Positions 2,951 to 20,000 of a stretch of 20,000 bases of DNA are shown here, piece by piece. Positions within the stretch are counted from its first letter, which is position 1; each line of letters begins with the position of its first letter. The stretch is taken from NCBI GenBank assembly GCA_000934665.2, contig JYFJ02002020.1:44483-64482 (forward strand), in the 5' to 3' direction. The notes beneath the pieces are model-generated. The model did not search any database. It saw only the letters and a program-made list of their open reading frames with translations, and was not told where the DNA came from. The translations under genes and the position numbers were made by a program. Source of the stretch: Catajapyx aquilonaris. Its lineage: Eukaryota.

Positions 2951-3631
2951 CTAAGTGGATTCAGCAGTTGCCTTGTCGTCACCCTTCTTTCCAGACTGCT
3001 TGATGCGATAATCGCTCAGTGCAGCCTTTATGGCATCCTCAGCCAGCACTGGTAACGGAAAGATATGTCAGGTTTCACAGTACGGTTTAAGGCTAATTAC
3101 AGGGCATACTTGAGCAATGCAGCTTGACGGGTGGCAAGCGCAGCTCCTTTGCAATGTCTGTGTTCTTCAGCTTCAGTGCCTCGTCCACCTGTGAAAAGAA
3201 GCTCATTTTTTACTCTGAAACATGGGTATGCGCGAGGTACGTACAGTCTTGCCCTTAACCCATTCGGTAGCGAGTGAGCTGGAAGCGATGGCAGAACCGC
3301 ATCCAAAAGTCTTAAACTTTGCATCAACAATCTTCCCATTGTCGTCCACCTTAATCTGCAGCTTCATCACATCTCCGCAAGCCGGAGCACCAACCAGGCC
3401 TGTTCCGACCTGCTTATCCTCCTTATCCAGCGACCCCACATTCCTGGGGTTCTCATAGTGATCAATCACCTGAAATTAATAAATAATTACAACCCCAAAA
3501 TGGGTGACCCCTGACCCCCTTCCAAGTACCTTCTCATGATAGTGCAAAGCAGGTGTGCTTGCGCTCTTGTTCGTAGTCTCCAGGAAGGTCCTTGGTATCA
3601 GCTGCCTGGACACAGCCCGGATCAAAGCCAT
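2951..3631 (-). CDS. ISCU: Mitochondrial iron-sulfur cluster scaffold protein IscU, 167 aa (exons 3631-3530, 3469-3245, 3188-3110, 3048-2951)
   Basis: YHEKVIDHYENPRNVGS, GLVGAPACGDVMKLQI, FKTFGCGSAIASSS, LPPVKLHCSMLAEDAIKAAL. Three GT-AG introns, exon sum 504 nt, and an Arg-rich presequence-like N-terminus MALIRAVSRQLIPR. Confidence 0.97.
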
Positions 3632-4148: not shown

Positions 4149-7100
4149 ATGGGAACGGTTGTGTTTGATCAGAGCGGCTTGGTGGCTGAAGCTAAGAAAA
4201 ATTTTCGTTCCAGAATTGGGCCAAAGTATTCAGACGATGGTAAGAAATTTTGCGTTTTGCGTAATTATGCGGTGACAATGTTATTATTTGGCAGATCTCA
4301 TTAAAACGTGGAATGGAATATTTGATGTCATCAAGGACCAGTTGATGAAGCAGCGTGTGAGTATAGCACAGTCATCGTTATTATGACTACAGTACCGGTA
4401 CTTAACCTTGTTATTAATTGTTCAGGGAGCGGACTTGGCTGGGTTCGGCACATTCAATTTCTCCCAGATCAAAATGAACATTGCCCAGCAGGCAGTGCTG
4501 TGCAGCCGCCAGCCAATATTCCGCCTCTGCCCCAAACTTGCAGACTACTACCGCATCCAGTCGTGCCAGGTCTTCCGAGATGGAGACCTCACTTGTTATC
4601 CGGTGAACTTGGCCACAGTGGCTCAGCAACTGGGAATGGACAGGCGTGTGGTGGAGTGGTGCACTGCGGAAGTTCTGTCCGCATTAGCTCGTGCCCTCAG
4701 CCAGGGTAAGGACGTGGAGTTCCCGGTGCCAGGGATGTGCAAGGTGCAGATACGGAACAAACGGCTGAAGACCATATTCCTGAGATCCTTTGAGAACAAG
4801 CTACCCATCTACCACATTCCAGAGGAGCGAAAGAAAGACGCTGAGCGAATTGCCCAGATTGAGGCCGATGGGATTGCCAATCGGGACAAGCAGAGGGCCG
4901 CAGGAAGAGAGAGGAAGCCAAAGGTGGTGAAGAAGGAGAAAAAGCCGGTGAAAGCTACTACGCCTAAAGCAGTACCATGTGGCCCAACCACATGCAAAGC
5001 CTTCATGGCTTCTGCTGGGGACAACGAAGCATCCCAAGAGGAAGGAGGCAGCGGTCCATGTGTACCCAACACTTGCCCAAAGTTTAACCCGGCAAGCGTA
5101 AGTATACACACCTTCTCTTATGTCAATTACTGAATTGTTGCTTGTGCTAACATGCCATTATTCCAGCTTATCCTTAGAATCCATATGGGGTTTATTAGTT
5201 GAATAATGAAATATCCCTTTTGTCATGAAATTTTGTGCATTATACTGTATACTATCTAAATGGATAGCAATTGCTTCTTAAAATTTGGCATGCAGAAATA
5301 CAGTCCTAAAACAAATAATCATTGTCTAGTGAAGGTCTTGTTGCACTGTCGCTGGAATGCCAGCGGAAAGCGGGCCAGGAGAGTTTGTTATTCATTGTCG
5401 TAAACTTTTCTCTGAACAATGAATAACGGAATTTTCAGGCTCCTTTCCAGCTGAGAAATTTTTCTGGTGATGATGTAACCAGACCTAAATGTACAATAAT
5501 TGTTCTTCAACTACTTGGGTTGGGATTTCCCTACACTTGTGTGCATGATTTATTTGGTGACTCGGTGGATCCCCATTTTCATTCTAGAACTAAGGCAAAT
5601 GTGTCACAAGGAAGTGAAATGGGAATAGCAGCCATAACCACAGCCACTGCTGTTCTCTAGAACCGAATCTCAATCAACTTGACACCCCATCACTCAATAA
5701 ACTGCCACACAAAATGCACATTGTAGTTTTATTGAATAGCATCCTATGAAGAATGAAATCCAAACTCTCTTCCTCTCCTCTCCTTTCCCTCTCTGCCCCT
5801 TCCGTGGTTCAGGGTGACGTGCAACGGACTTCTCGCAGGCTTGAAAGAGACACCCTGTGTCTTAATGATCCTAAGAACAAGTCTGCTGTCCCAGACAACT
5901 TTGTGGGGAAGAACATTTGGTGCCGTAAAGGGGACGAAGAGAAGCAAGCACCTTTCATCAAAGCCTGCTTCCCTGGGACCAACCACCCTATCAACCCAGC
6001 TCCGCCTCACAAGACCAGTGTTTTTTCTGAGTCCATGATGAAGCCCATGCAAAGCATAACTGACTTGGAGCAAGTGCTGGCTGACTGTGAGGTAAGTTAC
6101 TGCCATAGAATTGGCTGTCAGAGAATTTAATGTTGCATATGGTGCACAGGAAAAGAAAGAATCTGTGGCCTCTTTATGGGAATTATTTTTGGCACACTCT
6201 TGGAAACTGCGGATTCTTGATCCACGGTAGGTTGCATCCGCAGGTGTGGAACATGCAGTTACGAAGGGTTGCTGAAATTTAACTACTGCATGGCTACTCA
6301 GTGGAATGATCATTATGTGTGTCACTGTGGTCTCTATTGCACATATTGTATTGAGAACAAGGATGTTGATTAATATACACTTTCTAGGTAGGACAGTAAG
6401 CCATAAGGAATCAGTGTAATTATATCTCACTTGATTAGTTTTTTTTGTCGTGACTATCATTACCAGGATCTGAAAGGGCGTCGTTTGTGCGTGAGGTGTT
6501 CTCGCAGGATGGGGTGTAATGCACGTGCAGCATGGACTCAAGAGCATTCCGTGAAGCAGCATGAGGACATGGATGCCTATCACAGAGAAGCCCTTCCTCT
6601 GCAACCAGACTTTGCTGGCGAGTTGGCTGCTTGCAGGAGAAAGCAGGCTACGGAACAGGCCAAGTTCAACTATGATAAGGGACAGAAGGAGAGGGAGGAG
6701 CGGTTTAAGAAAGACACAACCTCCCTGCCCATGTCTGATGTCTTCCATGCCGTATGTGTTGCTCCTCTTTGTTGGTCCCAATTTTATATCGAAGTTTGAT
6801 AATAATTGAATCACACTGAATGACATGCAGGACTGAGGCTTGGTTGCATAAATGTAAATTTAAAGTGACCTATACAGGGTGTAAATGAATTCAACCGACA
6901 AACTTCTAGGGGTGATAGAGGGGACCAAGACAAACATTTTTGACATAGGAACCCGTGTCCGGAAACGCCATCTAGAGGGGGTTCATAGACAAGGAACGGG
7001 TGAGCTCAGACGCGTCACACGTGAGGCGCTAGGCGAGCGGACTGTTTTGTTGATAGATGGCGCTCGGATAGTAACCAACGATGCGATGTGCCATAACGTG

Positions 7101-8799
7101 GCAACAACAGAGTCATCTAGCAACTAAAGTCCCCCTCCTAGGAGACGCGCGGATAGTCAACAGCGGTTCTGTTGTTGCCAGGTTATGGCGTATCGTGTTG
7201 TTGTTTACTTACAACAACGCGATACGCCATAACCTGGCAACAACTGCGTGCCATCTATCAACAAAACAGTCCGCTCGACTTGCGCCTCTCTCGTGACGCG
7301 TCTGAGCGCACCCGTTCCTCGTCTATGAACCCCCTCTAGATGGCATTTCCGGACACGGTTTCCTATGTCAAAAATGTTTGTCTTGGTCCCCTCTATCACC
7401 CCTAGAAGTTTGTCGGTTGAATTCATTTACACCCTGTATATTGTAAATCATATTTCTAATGCATGATCTGAGATTTTGATACAACTGCCCTAACTTGGTT
7501 AATTCAGTATATGTTATTGGTATATGTGAGAACTAAGTCCTGATGAGAATGTTAATATGATTCTTTGTGAATGATATTTCGTTACAATTGCTGCTTGGCA
7601 GAGGCCGGCTACTCCAAAAGGGTTCGAGAACGCCCGCTTTCTGAAAGATGTGGAAGAGATGAAGAAGCAACTGAGTGACAAGAATGCCAAACAATTAAAA
7701 GATGCTGAGGACTTGATGTCTCGGGAGAAGGCTGAGAGAGAGAATCTCATTTCAGAGTACAAGACAATCTAATATTTGTTTGTACATATATCAACTGTAA
7801 CGTAATTCAAGTGAACTGACATGTCCCTTCTCTTGTTTTGGTATAGATTAAAAGCAGACATGGAAGCAGCAAGGAAGCATGAGGCTGAAGAGAAGGCCAA
7901 GTACATGGCATCACTTTTCAAGCAAATAGCAGAAAACAATGCCGTAAAACAGGCGGTGAAGGACAAGGAGTTGAGCACTCCATGCCATGAAATTCTTGAC
8001 CCGCATTTGTTGTTTGAGAAGAATTACGAATCAACTGGAGCAGGACCAGCCATGTCGAAAAAGTTAGTATTTTTACAACTGACGTATTGGCAGCACAGAG
8101 CCATTGAGTCAATCAGTCTAACAAGGTTTGCACCAATCATTTCATCCTCTTTTTGTGTGATACATTAAATTGTTTTTGTGGCACATGGTTTTGGCCTTTC
8201 ATGTACCAACATATCATAGTGATTTTGGTAAACGTAGAGTATTTGAGTTTCCTATAGCTTCATCCAGGAATTAAGTTCAGCCTTTACCTTCTATTGTAAT
8301 GAAAAATGGGTCAAGATGTAATTGGAGAATAATTTCAAATTAAGACTTTGGGTTGTGACCTTACAATGAAAGGACACTTACTGAAACTCAAAATTCTATC
8401 ATTGTTAATGCTTTATTGTGTTACGGCAGTGTGGCTTTGGAGATCCAGAAGATAAATATGGAGAAGGCAAAGGAGCTTCACCAAAAGGCAAAGGACGACT
8501 ATGAAAAAACAGTGAAGGAGGAGACAGAGGCACTAATGAGGACAAGACAGAGACTGAGGGATGCATGCCAGTATGAAAAGGCCAAGAACCTTACCTTGTT
8601 GGAAGACATGAAAAGTCATTGGGAAGCCCTGGCCAAGATTAAGAAGAACAAACCTGTGGAGAAACCAACTATTTCAGTTATGGACCAGCTTTTCTATTAC
8701 AACAGATGCTTCCGGTGCAAGAAGAAGGTCTCATATGATGGGAAAGGAAACTTTTGGAAAGGACACTATCCTCTTGATGGGCATCCTTATATTGAGTGA
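4149..8799 (+). CDS. CCDC81: Coiled-coil domain-containing protein 81-like, ~709 aa (exons 4149-4239, 4295-4356, 4426-5097, 5813-6091, 6467-6751, 7602-7756, 7847-8062, 8430-8799)
   Basis: N-terminal tandem HU-like motifs (TWNGIFDVIKDQLMKQRGADLAGFGTF...RQPIFRL; LSQGKDVEFPVPGMCKVQIRNKRLKTIF), central LCVRCSRR, coiled coils, and C-terminal RCFRCKKK...GNFW as in CCDC81. All introns are GT-AG with compatible phases, exon sum 2130 nt, AATAAA at 8805-8810. Confidence 0.85.
5333..5486 (+). repeat. Degenerate long hairpin in CCDC81 intron 3
   Basis: 5333-5398 pairs with 5416-5486 around a 17-nt loop. The core is GTTATTCATTGT / ACAATGAATAAC and the ends are AGGTCT / AGACCT. Confidence 0.7.
6875..7436. 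mobile_element. Non-autonomous Tc1/mariner-type MITE, 562 bp, ~187-bp TIRs, TA target duplication, in CCDC81 intron 5
   Basis: TA|CAGGGTGTAAATGAATTCAACCG...CGGTTGAATTCATTTACACCCTG|TA. TIRs 6875-7061 and 7250-7436 align without indels, and there is no transposase ORF. Confidence 0.92.
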
Positions 8800-9059: not shown

Positions 9060-12000
9060 TCAATATGTTTCAAGAAGCTTTTGTGAAGGTACTGAGGAGA
9101 GTACTTCATACTCAGGTTGCTTCTTATGGTAGACCATCAGTAACGAAAGTTCGTCTGGATTATGAACTTCTTGTAAATTGGTTTTCTTGCACCTATTTTG
9201 TTCCAGCTGGGATGAAATGGACTTGACTTCTTGGTACACTGGAACAAGCACGATGAATGCAGTGGCGATGTAGGCCCATCCTCTGGAGATGACGGTCCAG
9301 ATGGAGAATCCGTAGGCATCCAGAATGGTGGTACCAAGGAGCATGCATGCAGGCCACAGGATAATGAAGAACACAGCCAGGATGACTGCAGTTACATATG
9401 CAGTCAGAATGGCTGGACGGAACTTCCGAATCACCAGCTCCAGTGGTGGACGGCTTTGGACATCTTTTGGGGAATCAAGTTTGAGCTCATCCTGTTTTGA
9501 AAGGACAATTGATTTACAATCGAATTGTACTCGTATAACACAGGTGAGGCTAACTATGAACCACCCTCATGTCGGTGTGTGCAATGAATTATTATTATTT
9601 TGTGCCAAACTTCACCTGATAAGCTTCAACCCAAGGCGAGAGTGGGTTGTCTATGTTGCGAGTCTTTTCCCATTCGGCTTCCAGTTCCTCAGGTGTCCAC
9701 TTCGGTTTGGTTATTATGGACACCAAGGCACATATTATTCCTCCTGCTCCAATGGACACGACATTGCCAATAAACATGGCATATATCTATATCAAAGAGA
9801 GAAGTTGATTAAATTAACCTTTGTGTGACCTATGGCTATGATATTACATTTCCGGTGTTGTTGATGAAGTCCCCCAACCCCCCTGGCAGAGTGGACGAGT
9901 AAGAGAGCCAGGAGACGATGGCGCAGAGGAATCCTCCGAGGCTTCCAGCGATCATCCCAGAGGAGGTGGCCCTTGTCCAGGTGATGGAGAAGGCGATGGG
10001 GATGACCGCTGCCGAGATGAGGACCCCGATGAAGTAGTAGATCCAGGAGAGGTTGAGCTTGGCGTACCAGGCCAGAAGGGTCAGGACCACGGACAGGACT
10101 GTCCCGTTCACTATCCACCAGTTCTTGTAGGCCAGGAGGTCCTCCAGGTACTCCCTGTACTCCTTGTGCACTGGACACTGGTACCGGAACTTGCCTTTGG
10201 CAGGGGAATGAACTTGGAGGAGTGAGTGGTCCTCCTGTTGTGTACATAATATTAATTAAAGCATTAAAGCATTATAAGATAATGATATAATGTGTTACAC
10301 AGTATCATAGCGCGAATATGGGACTACCAACATTTTGTTTGCCAACATTTTCATAATAATTAATTACCCATTAAAAATTATATGCAGCCAATGAGACAAA
10401 AATACTCGTACCTATGAAGTAGTATAGGAGAGAATTGTTTTTCATACCGTACCTAACTTACCAGTATCTTCACAAGGCCGCCCAATTAAATGTCCCTTAG
10501 CGATTTTTAGTGCTAAGCTGCTAATTTTGAGGCAGATGGAAGTCATCAAAAATATTAGCTCATAATATATAAATTGTGTTGATCCATTTGGAACTTTACT
10601 AAATACATTCCCTTACTTTGCAACCTTCACATTGCGTGGCTGAAAGGCATTGACAGAGTGGCTCGTCGGTCGCATCGAGCATATCCGTCGGCGGATGGAC
10701 GTATTTGGAACAAAGGATGCACTGACCTTCCTTCAAGTCCTCTCGAAAAGGCTTCAGGTATACCTGATAGCAAAGCAAATAATGTTAATTCACCTCTGGG
10801 CATGCTGTCAATATCAACCCAAGTATCAACTGGTAATAACTCTTCACCTGGTATATGTCGTAGACCACAATGGAAGCCACGGCCACAACCTCGGAGGCAC
10901 CTGTGGCCATTACTGCCATCAGTATAAGGACGATCATGATCACTTCTCCCAGCTTGCCCAATAGTTTGTGGCATACAAATGCAGCCACCAATCCTAGATT
11001 TATTTTACCGGAATTAGTAAATGGACGGATAAGAGTGTGTTCTGTTAACTGACCGCTGTCCACTTGGTTGTCTGTGAGCAGCTGTTGTCCGTGGGCCGAG
11101 TTGAGTCCCAGGTAGGCCAGACCCATTGTTGTGGCCAGTCCAAACGGAACCGCAAACCAAGTCACTGCTCCCAGAACAAAGCCCCACACACCCTGGTAAA
11201 GATGTGTGTCTTGGAGTGTGTGTAATGAACTTTCAAAAAAATTGCAACATGGTTCTATAGTACCAAGAGCTAACAACTTATTAGCTCTTGATAGTACGTA
11301 CTATAGTCTCGTACTACAATGTACGTGTTTGCGTCTGATGTTGACAAGACATAATAAGTGTCCTATAATACACTGGGCTCATCGCAGTCTTGAGGTCCAC
11401 ATGTATACTGTACGACCGTATGTCGGGGATATAGGATTACTCATGATTTACTACAACTGATGAGAGCCATTTCAACGTTTTATGTCAACTAACGTTAGTT
11501 ACTGTACAGTACCATCTGTTCAACTGTTCATGCTCAAGCAATCTGATTTTACAGGATCGACTGACAATGACCGATATACCTGATCTTGAATTTATCAGAG
11601 GCGCAGCTATTAATTTTTCATGAAATTAGCAAGGTAATAAGGGTTTTAACCTCTAGGGCTATTAACCTACCTCTAATGGTTTTGCTGCCACCGATTTTTG
11701 CCAATAGGCCTGGTCGCAAAAGACGGCACCGAAGTTACCAACAATGTTGACAATGCCAAAAATGATTCCCTCGGAGGAGTAGAAGGTGAGGTAGCTCTTG
11801 TCCCTGTTTCCTTCTGGCCCTTCCCAACACTCGAGGAAGCCAAACATGGCCTGGCTGCTCCCAAAAGGATTCTTCGGGTTGTCGCTCGGATTGTGGTAAA
11901 CCTCGATGATCAGCCAGCATATCAGGATGTAAATGAGGGCCGTGTTGAAATAAGAGACGTAGAAGGTGGCACCCAGACCACCGATCACAGTGTAGATGGC

Positions 12001-13109
12001 CACTATGCTGGCCAGCATGAATGTGGCCAAGTCAGGGGACAAATCACTCACTAGTCTGTAATGAAGAAAGTAAATAATATTACTGGAAGCGCACCGCGAA
12101 CATGATAAAAATTGAGCATCCTTCGTAACAGCAAGAGGAAAGGACTGACCCGTTAATGACGGCAACGCCTGCTACCATGAGAGCCGTGACAATAATTGCA
12201 TTGGTCAGCAAGGCAAATCCGCAGAAGACCAGGTGTGCTCTTGTCCCAAATCTTGCCCGGATGACCTGTGCAATAAAATAGGATATTACCTTAATGCTTA
12301 TTTTTTATATGAATAAGCAAGTCAGTATGATTTTAACCTGAAGGAATGTCTTGGCTCCTGGAGCTCTGGTTTTAAGCTGGATAGACAAAATGGCAAAGAC
12401 GATAATTTGTATTGTTGCTCCACCAGCGTACCAGTAAGGTCCACTGATTCCAAACTGGAAGAAATTAGAGCTTGTAAATGTTTTCAGTAACTTTTCTGTT
12501 AGTGTGACGCTTTTAACAAAAATGGCAGTGACTTTTTCACCTGCTTTTAAATTTATGTAGGCTAAAACTTACTTTGGCAGCCACAGTGCAGCTCTGCAGC
12601 AACGTTGCAGTCCAGGTCCAGTTGGAGACAATGCAACTGGCAGTCAAGCTCAGAGACACGTTTCCTCCAGCGTCGAATGCAGTGTCCAGGCTGTCCGAAT
12701 CGTGGTACACATGCGTCCGTACCTGAAATCAAAGGAATGTGCAAAATTTCAATTCAAACGTGTAAGATTGAAATTTAAAACAAATGGAATTACTCACCAT
12801 TTGAAATGCGTATGCAATGATGGCCGATATGACTCCGACGACAAGAAAGACAAGAAATCCTTCCCACATTTCCACCGATCCCAATGCATGGGTTGGATCT
12901 ACTTCCACATTATTTCCTCCGAATTGTTGGACCACCCTGTCCTCGCAACCTTCCTTCAAACGTGGGTCGTACACAGGACCAGAAATGGTCGTCGTGTCTG
13001 CATCTTCCTCTGCAGACACCATTTGAGGCACGTCATTCACAATAAACGTCGCAGTTGCACACATGCAACGTGAAATCAGAAAGATTGCCAAAGTAAGAGA
13101 CTTATTCAT
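9060..13109 (-). CDS. DUR3: DUR3-like urea active transporter (SSS family), copy 1, intact, 833 aa (exons 13109-12798, 12722-12573, 12454-12338, 12265-12150, 12055-11671, 11192-11054, 10993-10848, 10763-10617, 10234-9848, 9786-9616, 9491-9060)
   Basis: DUR3 motifs: IVSNWTWTATLLQS, FGISGPYWYAGGATIQ, RAPGAKTFLQVIRARFG, GGLGATFYVSYFNT, NIVGNFGAVFCDQAYWQ, WFAVPF. Ten GT-AG introns with consistent phases, exon sum 2502 nt. Confidence 0.92.
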
Positions 13110-13350
13110 TGCGACCAGAGTACCGTGTAGCTAGTACCCAGCCTGCTCAGAAGACCTTGTACATACAAAGGAGTATGGTACACTGAGAGATCATGTAACT
13201 TGCAGGCAATAAAAATGGATCGAGGAATGGCGTAGAAAAATAATTAGATGTAAAATTCTGCTTCTCCGTATAAAGCATCTAAGTACAGCGGCTCTTTGCA
13301 AGCCACAATTTCCCTTGACATCATATTGTCTGGAAATGATCCTACGTGTG

Positions 13351-13490
13351 CTTCTCACGTTCAAGGTCAGGTTTATAATATTGACCCGTTGCGTAACGCA
13401 AATACTGAAGCCTTCAACGTGAAGAAGCATTGTTATTCGCACAGTTTGACTACATAAATAAATCTCACTTTGTCATGCAATAGACAGCAT
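13351..13490 (-). promoter_or_regulatory. Putative promoter of DUR3 copy 1, conserved upstream of copy 2 (17409-17555)
   Basis: Shared blocks TCAC.TTCAAGGT, CCC.TTGCGTAA.GCAA and TCTCA.TTTGTCATG.AA..GACAGCAT. TATAAA lies on the minus strand at 13377-13372 in copy 1. Confidence 0.55.
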
Positions 13491-13854
13491 CAACTGGCAG
13501 GCACAATGTAGCTGAAGCACAGCTTCTAATAATTATATTGACCAGGTTAATTTATGATTTTTTTTTCGTTATGCATGTAGAGTGTATAGGGATGTTGCTG
13601 TAAGTTACTGAATGGCAGGTTATTGTTGTAGAAGCTGTGGATCTGCAGGAATTAATGCCGGATGTATTTAATATTTTAAATATTTTGAAAGAGTTCCATT
13701 TTGTCCTGTAGGCCCTTGCATAGCACCTTTATTTAGGACAAAATAATGAGGAATACCGTGGTAATTATTGCGTTTTTAAATAATTATTATTTATTCACTG
13801 TACACGCTAGAATCACCTCCACTCGATACATTGCTCTCATGTTGCATACTGTAA

Positions 13855-16800
13855 TTATGATTGTCCAGAGCTGTGGAAATTGTCCCCACACTGCTCACAT
13901 GTCTGGTCAGCCACAGCCACCAACGATTTTTGTTCCAAAGGATCTTGTAGTTTTCTCCCCTTGCATCTGTTTCGCTTCATCTGAGTCCTGATGGCCATTA
14001 CCTCCTGGACCACTGGAGTAAAGACAAAGAAAACGGTAGCAATGTATGTCCACAATTCGGAGACAATGACCCAAGCCGAAAATTCATTTTGGCCCAGAAC
14101 GGTGGTCCATAGAAGCATGCAGCCAGGCCACAGGATGATGTAGAAGACTGTGAGGATGCCTGCTGCCCAATAGGCGATCAGCAAGGACGGACGGAACTTT
14201 CTGACCACCAGCTCTAGAGGCGGACGCTTGTAGACGTCTTTGGAAGTCTCCAGGTCCAAGTCATCCTGTAGCAAAGTTCCGTTATATATGGCGAACCAAA
14301 TGGTCAATCGCACTTGGAAGAACCGTGAAATTACCTGATAAGCTTGAACCCAAGATGAGAGAGGGTTATCTATATGTTGCGAGTCTTCTCCCATTCGGCT
14401 TCCAGCTCCTCAGGTGTCCACTTCGGTTTGGTTACAATGGACACCAAGGCACATATTATTCCTCCTGCTCCCATTGACACCACGTTACCAATGAACATGG
14501 AGTAAATCTGCAGTCATAAAAGGGCTTATTAATATTAGTTCTTCCCGTCAATTACCAGCCCCAGAGGACCTACATTGCCGGTGTTGTTGATGAAGTCCCC
14601 CAACCCCCCTGGCAGAGTGGAGGAGTAAGAGAGCCAGGAGACGATTGCGCAGAGGAATCCTCCGAGGCTTCCAGCGATCATCCCAGAGGAGGTGGCCCTT
14701 GTCCAGGTGATGGAGAAGGCGATGGGGATGACCGCTGCCGAGATGAGGACCCCGATGAAGTAGTAGATCCAGGAGAGGTTGAGCTTGGCGTACCAGGCCA
14801 GAAGGGTCAGGACCACGGACAGGACTGTCCCGTTCACTATCCACCAGTTCTTGTAGCCCAGGAGATCCTCCAGGTACTCCCTGTACTCCTTGTGCACTGG
14901 GCACTGGTACCGGAACTTGCCATGGGCAGCCGGGTGAACTTGGAGGAGTGAGAGGTCCGACTGTTTTGTTTACATATGGGTATAAGACACGGAGATTATA
15001 TCACCATGTCCTAAAGAAATGTATTGTAGTGGTCGTTCCTGCTTACTCTGCATCCTTCACAGTGCGAAGCATCAGAACACTGGCAGAGTTCTTCTATACC
15101 TTCTGGTGTGCCTTTCAATGGACGGATATATTTGGAACATAGAAGACATTGTCCTTCCTGCAGGCCTCTTCTGAAAGGCTTCAGGTACACCTATACAATA
15201 CACATGGTACGTAACAATATTGTTTTTACGCCACTTTCTATGTTGTTGCTTAAATGTTTCCTACCTGATAGACGTCATAAACTACTATGGAAGCCACGGC
15301 CACAACCTCGGAGGCACCAGTAGACATTGCAGCCATCAGAATCAAAATTATCATCATTACTTCTCCCAGCTTTCCCAGAAGTTTGTTTGACACAAAGGCA
15401 GCTACCAATCCTGCAATAAGTGATTGTTATTAATTCTGCAACACTAGAGCAATGTTACATGAATACCGCTGTCCACTTGGTTGTCTGTGAGCAGCTGTTG
15501 TCCGTGGGCCGAGTTGAGTCCCAGGTAGGCCAGACCCATTGTTGTGGCCAGTCCAAACGGAACGGCAAACCAAGTCACTGATCCGATCACAAAGCCCCAC
15601 ACACTCTGGTGAAAAGTCAGTTGCCAATACTGTAGTAGAATCCACCAGAATAGAAAATTTTGCACTTGAAACTTACTTGCACTGGCTTTGAAGCAACTGA
15701 CTTTTGCCATAGTGACTGGTCACAAAATGAGCTAAATCCCGTCACTATGTTCATTATGCCAAACAGAATTCCCTCGGAGGAGTAGAAGGTGAGGTAGCTC
15801 TTGTCCCTGTTTCCTTCTGGCCCTTCCCAACACTCGAGGAAGCCAAACATGGCCTGGCTGCTCCCAAAAGGATTCTTCGGGTTGTCGCTCGGGTTGTGGT
15901 AAACCTCGACGATCAGCCAGCATATCAGGATGTACATGAGGGCCGTGTTGAAATAAGAGACGTAGAAGGTGGCACCCAAACCACCGATCACAGTGTAGAT
16001 GGCCACTATTCCGGCCAGCATGAATGTGGCCAAGTCAGGGGACAAACCACTCACCAAACTGTATTGAAATCAATGACAGTATTTGTTATGAAAATGAACC
16101 AGAGAGTGTACTTGCCCGTTAATTACAGCAACGCCCGCCACCATAAGAGCAATAACAATAATTGCGTTGGTCAGCAAACCAAAACCGCAGAAGACCAGGT
16201 GTGCTGTTTTCCCAAATCTTGCTCGTATGACCTGTAGTAAAATAGAAATATTAATGTCAATTAAATTATTAATATTTTACTTTTATTATCATTACCTGCA
16301 GGTATGTCTTGGCACCTGGCGCCCTAATTTTAAGCTGGGTTGATAGAATGGCAAAGATGATTATTTGAATCGTTGCTCCCGCTGCGTACCAATAGGGTCC
16401 ACTGATTCCAAACTATTTTTTGAAAAAAAATGTAATGGTATACATATGACATGAACTCTGCATTTTTGCAGCCTTGTTGCACTTTTTGCATGTACAAACA
16501 TTCTTAGTGAATAAACATAAAAATTGCTATTGCATTATTAATTAAATATTAGTACTAGATTAGTAGGGGGCCTACTTTATTATGCTATCACTATGTTATA
16601 ATGTCCTTAGTGGTTAGCGATTTTTGGCAATGCACTGCTTATTTTTACTAAATTTTATTACTTTTTCATAGTGGCACATAGTGGTTACGAAAACTCTCAG
16701 GAAATGTTTTCTCCTTACTTTGGCAGCTACAGTACAGCTCTGCACTAACGATGCAGTCCATGTCCAGTTGGAGACAATGCAACTGGCAGTCAAGCTCAGA

Positions 16801-17233
16801 GACACGTTTCCTCCAGCGTTGAATGCAGTGTCCAGGTTATCCGAATCGTGGTACACGTACGTCCGTATCTTAAATTCAAAACATTATTACACATTATTGA
16901 ATAAATATTTAAAAGACTCACCGCTTGAAAGGCGTATGCAACGATGGCCGATATGATTCCGACAACAAGAAAGACAAGAAATCCTTCCCACAATTATACC
17001 GATCCCAATGACAGGGTTTGATCTGCCTCCACATGTCGTAAGTGTTGGACCACCCTGTCCTCGCATCCTTCCTTCAAATGAGGGTCGTACACAAGACCAG
17101 AAATGGTCGTTGTATCGGCTGCAATTTCCTCTGCACACACCGACACCTTTCTAGACATATCATGTTCAAATGTCGCAGTTGTCCTCTTGCATCGGGATAT
17201 GACGATGGTAAAGGTCAAGAAAAGTGAATTCAT
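13855..17233 (-). pseudogene. DUR3: DUR3-like copy 2, disabled (exons 17233-16922, 16868-16719, 16412-16296, 16231-16116, 16058-15677, 15605-15467, 15410-15265, 15190-15047, 14960-14574, 14507-14335, 14265-13855)
   Basis: Same 11-exon layout as copy 1. In-frame TAA at 16996-16994 where copy 1 has GAA. An extra TA at 14371-14374 makes exon 10 173 nt instead of 171 nt and gives an immediate TAG. An alternative upstream ATG lies at 17257. Confidence 0.85.
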
Positions 17234-18100
17234 AAGGACTGAGCTTGTCCAGACCATGCTCAGATGATCTTATGCAGTTCCTTGTACAATGGTACGAGGT
17301 ACACTGAAATATTGTACACACTTTTACGCACAACCGTACTACTATAGAGGAGAGAGCTTTGTTTCTATAGTGAACTTATCAGTCCCTTTTTCACTCCATG
17401 TTACTGTACTTTTCACATTCAAGGTAAGAGTTATCACAGTCCCATTGCGTAATGCAAGAATGAAGCATAAAGCGTGGCTATGAATTATTTTTCGAGCAGT
17501 TTGAATATTTTAAACCGTGTAAGCAAGTCTCATTTTGTCATGAAACTGACAGCATGATGAGGTATACGCAAAATGAAGCGGGGTTACGTCGACTAATATA
17601 ATACACACCTTATAGCAGCAGCAGATTTTTACATTGTCATTATTGCAAGTCATTTTGGATGTAGATATCGGACTACTGTATAATACTCTCCGATAACAAT
17701 GAGGGTAAGTTGGATAGTTCATTTTACAATTTGTTATTCATATGTGTTACTCATATGCATTTTTACATGCGCGTTTATTTTGATTGTTACTCAGAAGTAA
17801 TAAATCGTTAATTAATTCATACGATTAAATATTACCATGTTGAAATTTATTCAAAGATTGCAACAGATTTCAAAAGTGAAACGTCCAATTTTTTGTGCCG
17901 CTAGCGATGCAATGAAAAAAATAACATAAAAATGCTTCAAAAGCAGCCTATAAACATTATGTACTGAACTCAACCGACATTATTGACGGATGACCCAGCA
18001 GTAAGAAACATCCTATAAAATAATTATGAAGTGTAATATATTACTTGAAGCAATAGCAAAGTCAATGGTTAGACACTTCTTATAGCACTGACTCGATGCT

Positions 18101-19865
18101 TCAGCTAATGGTGGTGGTAGAAGTGTTCAGACTGGTCTTGCTGTTGGACGCGTAACGTCCATACATTCCAATCACAGACATGTCAGAGTTGTTCTGACTG
18201 GTGCGGTCATCTTGGTCCTGTCGTCTGTTTCGATTTAGTTGGGCCAAGATGGACACGACCTCCTGGACCACAGGGACGACCACGATGAATCCAGTGGCGA
18301 TGTAGGCCCATCCTCTGGACACCCAGGTCCAAATGGCGAATCCGTAGGCATCCAGAATGGTGGTACCAAGGAGCATGCATGCAGGCCAGAGAATGATGAA
18401 GAACACAGTTAGGATCCCTGCCGACACATACGCCGTCAGTATGGCTGGACGGAACTTTCGAACCACCAGTTCTAACGGAGGACGGTCGGGGGCTTCTACG
18501 GAGGAATCCACTTTCAAATCATCCTGAAAGCAGGTTGCAGTTAAACGCAAAATTTCTTCCAAGCACTGCCTCTCTTGTAGCATAATAAGCCAGAGAAAAA
18601 CTGTGCAAACCTGATAAGCCTGAACCCATGGTGACAGTGGGTTGTCTATGTTGCGAGTCTTCTCCCATTCGGCTTCCAATTCCTCTGGTGTCCACGTCGG
18701 TTTGGTTATTATGGACACCAGTACACATATTATTCCTCCTGCACCCATGGACACCACGTTACCAATGAACATGGAGTATATCTGATTTTTAAAAAGTCGC
18801 TTGAAAAATTATGTACACTTTATGGTAGATGCAAAATGGACAGTACATTCCCGGTGTTGTTGATGAAGTCCCCTAATCCTCCTGGGAGAGTGGAGGAGTA
18901 GGACAGCCACGAGATTATGGCGCAGCTTAATCCTCCAACACTTCCAACAATCATTCCGGATGATGTAGCTCTAGTCCAGGCTACACAAAATGAGATGGGG
19001 ATGACCGCTGCAGAGATGAGGACCCCGATGAAGTAGTAGATCCAGGAGAGGTTGAGCTTGGCGTACCAGGCCAGAAGGGTCAGGACCACGGACAGGACTG
19101 TCCCGTTCACTATCCACCAGTTCTTGTAGGCCAGGAGGTCCTCCAGGTACTCCCTGTAGTCCTTGTGCACTGGGCACTGGTACCGGAACTTGCCATCGGC
19201 AGCCGAGTGAACTAGGAGGCGTGAGCGGTCTTCCTGTTGAAGAAGATTGAGCATGTTCTAAAATAATGTGAACTATTAGAAGAAAAGAACATGCTCTATA
19301 TCCACTACTTACTTTGCACCCATTACAATAGGCAGCGGCGGGACACTGGCAAAATGTTACCGCATTTGGTGTTTCATGTACTGGTGGATGAAGATATTTT
19401 GAACATAGAACACATTGGCCTTCCTGCAGGCCCTTTCGGTACGGCTTCAGGTACACCTGGCCATATGAAAATATATTAGTAAAACTCATTCGACTTGATT
19501 CCGTTATATTATCACCTGATATATGTCATACACCACAATGGAAGCCACTGCCACAACCTCGGAGGCTCCTGTAGACATGACTGCCATCAGTATGAGGACG
19601 ATCATGATCAGTTCACCGACCTTGCCCAATAGTTTATGGCATACAAATGCAGCAACCAATCCTAGGATTTTTTTATCACTGATAATAAACGGACACAATC
19701 ATATTATGGTGGTTTTGTTAACTGACCGCTGTCCACTTGGTTGTCTGTGAGCAGCTGTTGTCCGTGGGCCGAGTTGAGTCCCAGGTAGGCCAGACCCATT
19801 GTTGTGGCCAGTCCAAACGGAACAGCAAACCAAGTCACTGCTCCCAGAACAAAGCCCCACACACC
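18101..19865 (-). CDS. DUR3: DUR3-like copy 3, 3' part (exons 6-11: 19865-19727, 19661-19516, 19456-19313, 19233-18847, 18781-18611, 18523-18101); 5' exons beyond window end
   Basis: Exon sizes 139/146/144/387/171/423 match the paralogues, there are no stops or frameshifts in the visible exons, and the introns are GT-AG. Confidence 0.88.
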
Positions 19866-20000
19866 CTGTTCAAGAAATGCAGTGTTATAGAGGAGACTCG
19901 TTTATAATGGGGAACTAGCCTTCATTTTGGAAACTACATAATAAATTCGCCCATATTTTTTGGATTTTTTTGGCATATTCCGTTTTAAGATATCAGTTCC

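Follow-up and report, generated by a model that had tools for sequence, protein, structure and literature searches.

The window considered here, a 20,000-nucleotide (nt) stretch of the Catajapyx aquilonaris genome (contig JYFJ02002020.1, positions 44,483 to 64,482, forward strand), carries three paralogues of the transporter gene DUR3, which lie head to tail on the minus strand at 9060-19865 (Table 1). Copy A is intact: it has ten GT-AG introns, and splicing gives an open frame of 833 amino acids. Copy B is broken. Copy C is represented by its 3' half, since the window end is also the end of the contig (C928 below), which cuts the gene and leaves exon 6 onward. The initial annotation of this DNA reported three head-to-tail paralogues with identical exon architecture. 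The arrangement is confirmed, and the intron positions and phases are common to copies A-E (D and E lie on other contigs); however, copy B is not intact and copy C is partial.

Table 1. Features of the window (positions are those of the window; residues in the numbering of Arabidopsis DUR3, AtDUR3; TM, transmembrane helix)
Feature	Position	Strand	Remarks
DUR3 copy A	9060..13109	-	intact, 11 exons, 833 amino acids, class 1
Copy A, exons 1-6	13109-12798, 12722-12573, 12454-12338, 12265-12150, 12055-11671, 11192-11054	-	
Copy A, exons 7-11	10993-10848, 10763-10617, 10234-9848, 9786-9616, 9491-9060	-	
Copy A, TM6, canonical type	11677..11769	-	N305, D312, Y315 kept; T308 replaced by Ala
Copy A, TM8 pair, probable Na2 sodium site	10902..10907	-	Ala-Thr; Ser-Thr in other animal DUR3s
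Copy A, Cys7His insert between TM8 and TM9	10166..10721	-	interrupted by intron 8; probable two-zinc module
DUR3 copy B	13855..17233	-	11 exons, broken, probable pseudogene, class 2
Copy B, in-frame TAA at codon 80	16994..16996	-	
Copy B, exon 10, 2-nt insertion and ensuing stop	14370..14378	-	insertion at about 14374-14378, stop at 14370-14372
Copy B, TM6, rewritten	15683..15772	-	G304T, N305G, G307S, Y315L, one codon deleted
DUR3 copy C, exons 6-11	18101..19865	-	class 2; exons 1-5 on C6954:205-2161 (join inferred)
End of a very high-copy inverted-repeat element	19904..20000	.	in copy C intron 5, where the contig breaks off
CCDC81-like gene	4151..8799	+	tail to tail with copy A; PF18289, E 2e-11
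ISCU/NifU iron-sulfur scaffold gene	2960-3631	-	between the ARL13-like and CCDC81-like genes; PF01592, E 2e-31

The ratio of nonsynonymous to synonymous substitution rates (dN/dS) of copy B, 0.13-0.18, is similar to that of the other copy pairs, which suggests lesions that arose recently or are confined to this individual. The exon 10 insertion is also present in contigs of the DNA runs X1-X3, with no difference among the rows listed; these runs come from one sample, possibly the assembly's own source, and the insertion lies less than 31 nt from the run contig end and is not formally bridged. The lesions of copy B may be assembly errors.

Genome searches with exons 5 and 9 found six DUR3 copies on three contigs, in line with the earlier count of "at least three". 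Contig C6954 holds the intact copy D (827 amino acids) and exons 1-5, which complete copy C (843 amino acids). We infer this join of C928 and C6954 because the broken intron matches intron 5 of copy E on both sides of the break, and because one arm of a 19-nt inverted repeat is found at each broken end (the window end has a 19-nt inverted match to the start of C6954), the window end being a very high-copy repeat. Its bin depth is 25,023-49,484 in three DNA runs, as against 3-111 in every other bin. With the join, D-C-B-A would form a four-gene tandem run. Contig C1715 holds the intact copies E (822 amino acids) and F (906 amino acids, 13 exons), with three other genes between them. Copies A-E are 75-84% identical among themselves, and F is 52-58% identical to them. 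The possibility that C6954 and C1715 are allelic versions of the window was rejected, considering these identities of A-E and the fact that most introns are unalignable.

Copy F (C1715:31-3920, minus strand) has three introns more than A-E and lacks one of theirs; it has a long Ser/Thr/Pro-rich, mucin-like N-terminal stalk, and over its first 30 residues it is similar to copy E. A leucine-rich repeat gene, an open reading frame of about 140 codons and an ionotropic-receptor-like gene occupy C1715:5025-11769, so F and E are not direct neighbours.

On sequence grounds, the array genes are DUR3 members of the SSS family (PF00474) and do not belong to another SSS subfamily. Exon 5 matched DUR3 in the PDB at E 1e-15 and SGLT1 at E 0.76. 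Structures were modelled for two relatives, P0010 (Tigriopus, predicted local distance difference test score (pLDDT) 91) and P0224, rather than for the cluster's own spliced proteins; the P0010 model matched plant DUR3 with Z 42-43 (root-mean-square deviation 2.2 over 575 residues), the next SSS structure scoring 31.8. Pfam gave weak SSF matches in three of ten single exons, and a homologue search with exon 9 (one match from 1120 candidates) was uninformative. The DUR3 identity proposed initially is thus supported by the PDB match, the fold match and the tree described below.

The phylogeny that had been suggested was built with IQ-TREE from 36 rows hand-picked from 81, excluding the columns of TM6 and of the insert considered below; the outgroup comprised two named fungal and several unnamed DUR3-like rows, and the tree contained neither plant sequences nor members of another SSS subfamily. 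All six copies fall into a single clade (100/100), which agrees with the lineage-specific expansion presumed earlier. Its sister group consists of barnacles and copepods (99/97), followed by three horseshoe-crab copies (99/99), all within an animal DUR3 clade (100/100); FastTree trees of 71 and 81 rows recover the six-copy clade with that same sister group. The host is an arthropod. Contamination or recent transfer, which had been argued against from the introns, is ruled out by this nested position, the common introns, the animal neighbours and the spliced contigs. The best database matches of exon 5 are only 71-72% identical; hence, no close relative was found. In the FastTree analysis, two old bilaterian DUR3 lineages are likely, with Tachypleus, Lingula, Owenia and molluscs represented in both; one mollusc lineage has a strongly altered pocket.

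Repeated local expansion of DUR3 is normal in invertebrates and the array itself is ordinary, considering that several invertebrate genomes have two to four DUR3 genes on one sequence. The best 120 matches include at least four DUR3 proteins of Tachypleus on a sequence of one length, at least three of Lingula on a 747-kilobase scaffold and one elsewhere, at least two of Saccoglossus on a 124-kilobase scaffold, and at least two of Mercenaria with adjacent locus numbers; the tandem order in these species is deduced from sequence labels and locus numbers. A snail has named DUR3 subtypes. Named DUR3-like matches come from what we take to be 12 bilaterian phyla, and no vertebrate, insect or nematode name is found among the best 120-150 matches listed. 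The "patchy" animal distribution assumed initially does not agree with these data. The same annotation made its conclusion depend on relatives not routinely carrying several copies, and the four genera above largely go against this.

What distinguishes the cluster is a division of its copies into two classes. Pocket residues were transferred to the copies in AtDUR3 numbering. W93, W95, Y117, Q124, D312, W338, E402 and Y461 are kept in all six copies, and T308 is Ala or Ser in all of them. Class 1 (A, D and F) keeps all nine of W93, W95, T98, Y117, Q124, N305, Y315, W338 and Y461, with T308 replaced by Ala; class 2 (B, C and E) has Gly for N305 and Leu for Y315 in TM6 and lacks the canonical urea pocket. 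Intact copies of opposite classes are 80-84% identical. Taking as class-distinguishing the sites where A and D agree on a residue found in none of B, C and E, we found 7 of the 18 such sites inside one 31-residue TM6 window of the 586-residue core (scan-corrected permutation P 0.0009). Six of the TM6 sites (G304, N305, G307, V309, Y315 and A322) are kept by 50-59 of 65-66 named animal rows, and several of the class-2 changes need two or three base changes per codon.

The classes also differ at a probable sodium site. S392/S393 of SGLT1 are the equivalents of vSGLT S364/S365 (PMC4270436); plant DUR3 lacks one of the two TM8 Na2-site serines (bioRxiv 2025.05.20.653754), and its H222 occupies the Na2 position (PMC11840088). 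Our DUR3 profile (78 rows) aligns positions 397/398 with SGLT1 S392/S393, although the profile alignment is weak. In this same weak registry, which also draws on range end-points, positions 397-398 are Ser-Thr in B, C and E, Ala-Thr in A and D, and Ala-Ala in F, while Ala at 397 occurs in none of 65 named animal rows. Position 222 is Asn in all six copies, so the His associated with proton coupling is absent. The set N222/S397/T398 is found in 104 of 110 insert-bearing database sequences, none of which has H222; H222 is found in 44 of 59 sequences with a short loop. We believe that animal DUR3s are probably Na+-coupled rather than proton-coupled. The split therefore looks reciprocal: a normal urea pocket goes with a presumably damaged Na2 site in class 1, and a rewritten pocket with a presumably normal Na2 pair in class 2. 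Differing in both the pocket and the probable Na+ site, the two classes probably have different jobs. Of the initial description of the genes as high-affinity urea-proton symporters, the assignment to DUR3 stands, but the rest is doubtful with T308 and H222 gone in all six copies and N305 and Y315 in three.

The insert just mentioned lies between TM8 and TM9. This loop has 83-84 residues in all six copies as against 14 in plant and fungal proteins, is on the cytosolic side according to the AtDUR3 topology, and carries the motif C-x2-C...C-x-C-x5-C-x2-C...C-x2-H. Of 196 database rows that span the region, 116 have the Cys7His motif, 64 a short loop and 16 neither. Named animal rows have the motif in 59 of 67 cases (three of the 67 named by a transcriptome code only), outgroup rows in none of eight. 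In an alignment of 74 rows selected for having the insert, six of the eight invariant columns are its Cys/His. It was modelled with pLDDT above 90 in P0010 and of 82-96 in P0224. We regard it as a probable two-zinc module, its eight ligands suggesting two Zn ions. Pfam searches matched no family in the insert, except for FYVE_2 at E 0.91 in one of the six proteins; the Atlas contained no look-alike, and PDB fold searches matched only the flanking helices (best Z 7.3). As the searched model included these helices, the missing fold match is no sign of a new fold. The literature searched contained no report of the insert, which published alignments could already show, and nothing on its function or on the coupling ion of invertebrate DUR3; the primary papers on animal DUR3 may treat both.

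Nucleotide identity among A-E forms a mosaic. It spans 46-100% per exon, with identical runs of up to 218 nt: exon 6 is 95-100% identical in all ten pairs, and exons 1, 8 and 11 only 46-84%. Different pairs have introns in common (intron 4 in B/C/E, 10 in C/E, 9 in A/D and 7 in A/E), and most others are unalignable. We presume that copies A-E have been homogenised by gene conversion, which would make TM6 an island of divergence. The dN/dS among the copies (0.13-0.18; 0.13-0.16 for C and E against all copies) indicates purifying selection. Intron 4 of B, C and E, a 57-nt GC-AG intron (16059-16115 of the window in B; also on C6954 and C1715), is nearly identical in the three copies and can serve as a marker of a common class-2 segment.

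Contigs of run X5 skip introns at CT..AC ends, and those of the DNA runs do not. One X5 contig matches copy A across the exon 10-11 junction, skipping 9490-9615 with 0 differences; one spliced contig has D-type letters; and the remaining one, D-like at its 5' end, links a junction specific to D with a TM6 of the E type. The X5 cover over B and C is almost nil and uninformative on their expression. As to physiology, two tandem arginase-family genes (PF00491) are found at C20:119695-123509 on the minus strand. Urease alpha, UT and allantoicase gave no match in the animal's own genome, which is weak evidence because the assembly is fragmented and the allantoicase control failed. No evidence supporting symbiosis was found. 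In molluscs, DUR3-like genes have been linked with the uptake of urea by symbiotic clams and with the response of a snail to salinity (PMC6836662, PMC5879104, PMC12705337). PMC10917513 is relevant through its reference list only, and the available parts of PMC6019070 and PMC12998343 contain nothing on animal DUR3; the lucinid paper cites a Hydra study for DUR3, the available text of which concerns algal genes. The simplest and likely role of the cluster is in dealing with nitrogen solutes of the animal itself, be it in excretion, reabsorption or osmolyte balance.

Outside the array, the neighbours named initially were ARL13B and CCDC81. The CCDC81-like gene is supported, while the gene that has its 3' end in the window is ARL13-like by a weak Arf match (E 0.007), and an ISCU/NifU gene left unnamed before lies between them. 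Open reading frames upstream of the window (C928:34483-44482) look like a maltase-type glycoside hydrolase, a small GTPase and the first part of the ARL13-like gene. Palindromes that are long but imperfect occupy 6871-7440 (an intron of the CCDC81-like gene) and 1326-1473 (an intron of the ARL13-like gene); they are probable foldback elements or miniature inverted-repeat transposable elements. On C1715, a tandem array of about five ecdysteroid-kinase-like (EcKL) genes lies just upstream of copy E (18500-33500), and another duplicated unit is at about 35100-38000.

With moderate confidence, we favour a native lineage-specific DUR3 expansion whose copies are kept alike by gene conversion and which has diverged into two functional classes. 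It builds on what is observed: the structures and number of the genes, their family and place in the tree, the residue patterns and the mosaic identity. Class 1, to which the older copy F belongs together with A and D, keeps the urea sandwich of W95, W338, Y117, N305, Y315 and Y461 and would most likely move urea across an epithelium, with an affinity probably below that of plant DUR3 and with Na+ coupling presumably weakened or lost. Class 2 (C, E and the broken B) would combine the retained Na+-site Ser-Thr pair with a wider pocket devoid of the inner Tyr gate. Its most likely cargo, moved together with Na+, is some other or larger small nitrogen solute; alternatively, it may transport urea with markedly different kinetics. 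In the cited mutagenesis, Y315 is the inner gate and Y315A nearly abolishes transport by yeast DUR3, N305A being milder (PMC11840088). In UreA, N279 and T282 influence selectivity and affinity, N279A raises the affinity for acetamide 4.6-fold, and T282A reduces the rate to 14% (PMC9783183). Fungal Dur3 carries polyamines as well (PMC5997356).

Several points weigh against this interpretation. The substrates and coupling of every copy, as well as the direction of transport and the tissue, are predicted from sequence. The full set of six key residues is found in only 44 of the 67 named animal rows, several of the others being truncated; in 242 database rows, substitutions affect Y315 in 26 and N305 in 40, so the family tolerates or reuses such pocket changes. 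The mutagenesis data come from fungal proteins with Ala, not Leu or Gly, and UreA N279A leaves the urea Km unchanged (PMC9783183). The TM6 window was picked after the pattern had been seen, and the clustering could partly come from conversion elsewhere rather than from selection on TM6. Ser/Thr at 398 is also found in 32 of 59 short-loop sequences, which means that this residue alone is no proof of Na+ coupling. None of the six copies has lost D312 or E402, the residues proposed as proton sites; in the profile alignment, the D312 position is Asp in SGLT1 too, so the pair is not diagnostic of proton coupling. Run X5 belongs to a second study and is not on record as RNA, and its D/E-mixed contig may be a chimaera or else a converted allele.

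It is tempting to go further and to propose that animal DUR3s are a distinct Na+-coupled subfamily mislabelled as urea-proton symporters and having an undescribed cytosolic two-zinc module, with the cluster split into a Na+-uncoupled urea class and a Na+-driven class for a non-urea nitrogen solute (a polyamine, amide or guanidino compound), kept apart by selection against gene conversion. We advance this only tentatively and consider it rather doubtful.

A simple increase in dosage, in which the intact copies are interchangeable urea transporters and the TM6/TM8 differences are tolerated drift, is possible but on the whole unlikely. W95, W338, Y117, Y461, D312 and E402 are indeed kept in all six copies, gene conversion is active, multi-copy DUR3 is common, and the N305A and N279A substitutions are mild for urea in yeast DUR3 and UreA (PMC11840088, PMC9783183). 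However, the Y315A effect on transport (PMC11840088) is severe, the class-2 changes are multi-base, fall at conserved sites and cluster in TM6, and the class-2 TM6 persists in three copies despite conversion on either side of it.

We consider it improbable that class 2 is decaying, a damaged TM6 having been spread by gene conversion and B being merely the first copy to break. Copy B does have two disabling lesions and the TM6 deletion, and it groups with A and D once TM6 is excluded (88/99, IQ-TREE), which indicates that the TM6 type was moved by conversion; nevertheless, the frames of C and E are open with low dN/dS against all copies, both retain the Na2 pair, and an E-type TM6 occurs inside a spliced X5 contig.

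The reading given initially, high-affinity urea-proton symporters expanded for urea uptake or symbiont feeding, seems improbable to us as well: DUR3-like genes have been discussed in this way for giant clam and lucinid clam gills (PMC6836662, PMC5879104), imported urea would need microbes for its use if urease alpha is missing, and the Na2 site of class 1 is degraded in a plant-like manner, but neither symbiont nor tissue evidence was found, the Thr needed for UreA rate and affinity (T308; PMC9783183) is Ala/Ser and H222 is missing in all six copies, clusters also occur in the horseshoe crab, brachiopod and acorn worm, and the negative urease search was run on a fragmented assembly.

By itself the array is of little importance, since invertebrates often have several DUR3 genes. 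Near-identical paralogues that differ at a few pocket and ion-site residues offer a clean natural experiment on the change of substrate and coupling ion in the SSS family. The cluster makes two questions testable: whether Na+ or H+ drives the invertebrate DUR3s invoked in studies of symbiosis and osmoregulation, and what the conserved Cys7His insert does. We consider as new the two-class split of pocket and ion site, a probable coupling of animal DUR3 to Na+ and the insert, all of them putative in their functional meaning.

The plant proteins (Arabidopsis 9j7c/9j7d/9x5u and maize 9vim), H+/urea symporters, resemble the copies in the 15-helix LeuT fold, as modelled in the copepod relative, and in the W95/W338 sandwich, Y117, Y461, D312 and E402 kept in all six. 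In contrast to them, the copies are extended at the N-terminus, where they begin with a hydrophobic, signal-like segment, and they have about 70 additional residues (the Cys7His insert) between TM8 and TM9, Asn for H222, Thr for A398 (F excepted) and Ala/Ser for T308; in B, C and E, TM6 is rewritten. The Na+-coupled SGLT1 and vSGLT have a TM8 hydroxyl pair that aligns with the Ser-Thr which copies B, C and E share with other animal DUR3s, but show only 13-16% identity in the structural alignment with the P0010 model and have another substrate pocket. Mollusc DUR3-like proteins (Tridacna; Theodoxus subtypes such as A2, P0126) also occur as several subtypes per species and, according to citing papers, are tied to urea uptake or to the regulation of urea as an osmolyte; the pocket of the divergent mollusc subtype, however, has changed in its own way, independently of the cluster. 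The closest counterparts are the DUR3s of the barnacle and copepod sister group (Amphibalanus P0001, Pollicipes P0069, Tigriopus P0010 and Lepeophtheirus P0040), which are 47-55% identical to the copies and have the same Cys7His insert (shorter in P0069) and N222. They keep N305, T308, Y315 and S397-T398, a full set that is found in neither class of the cluster.

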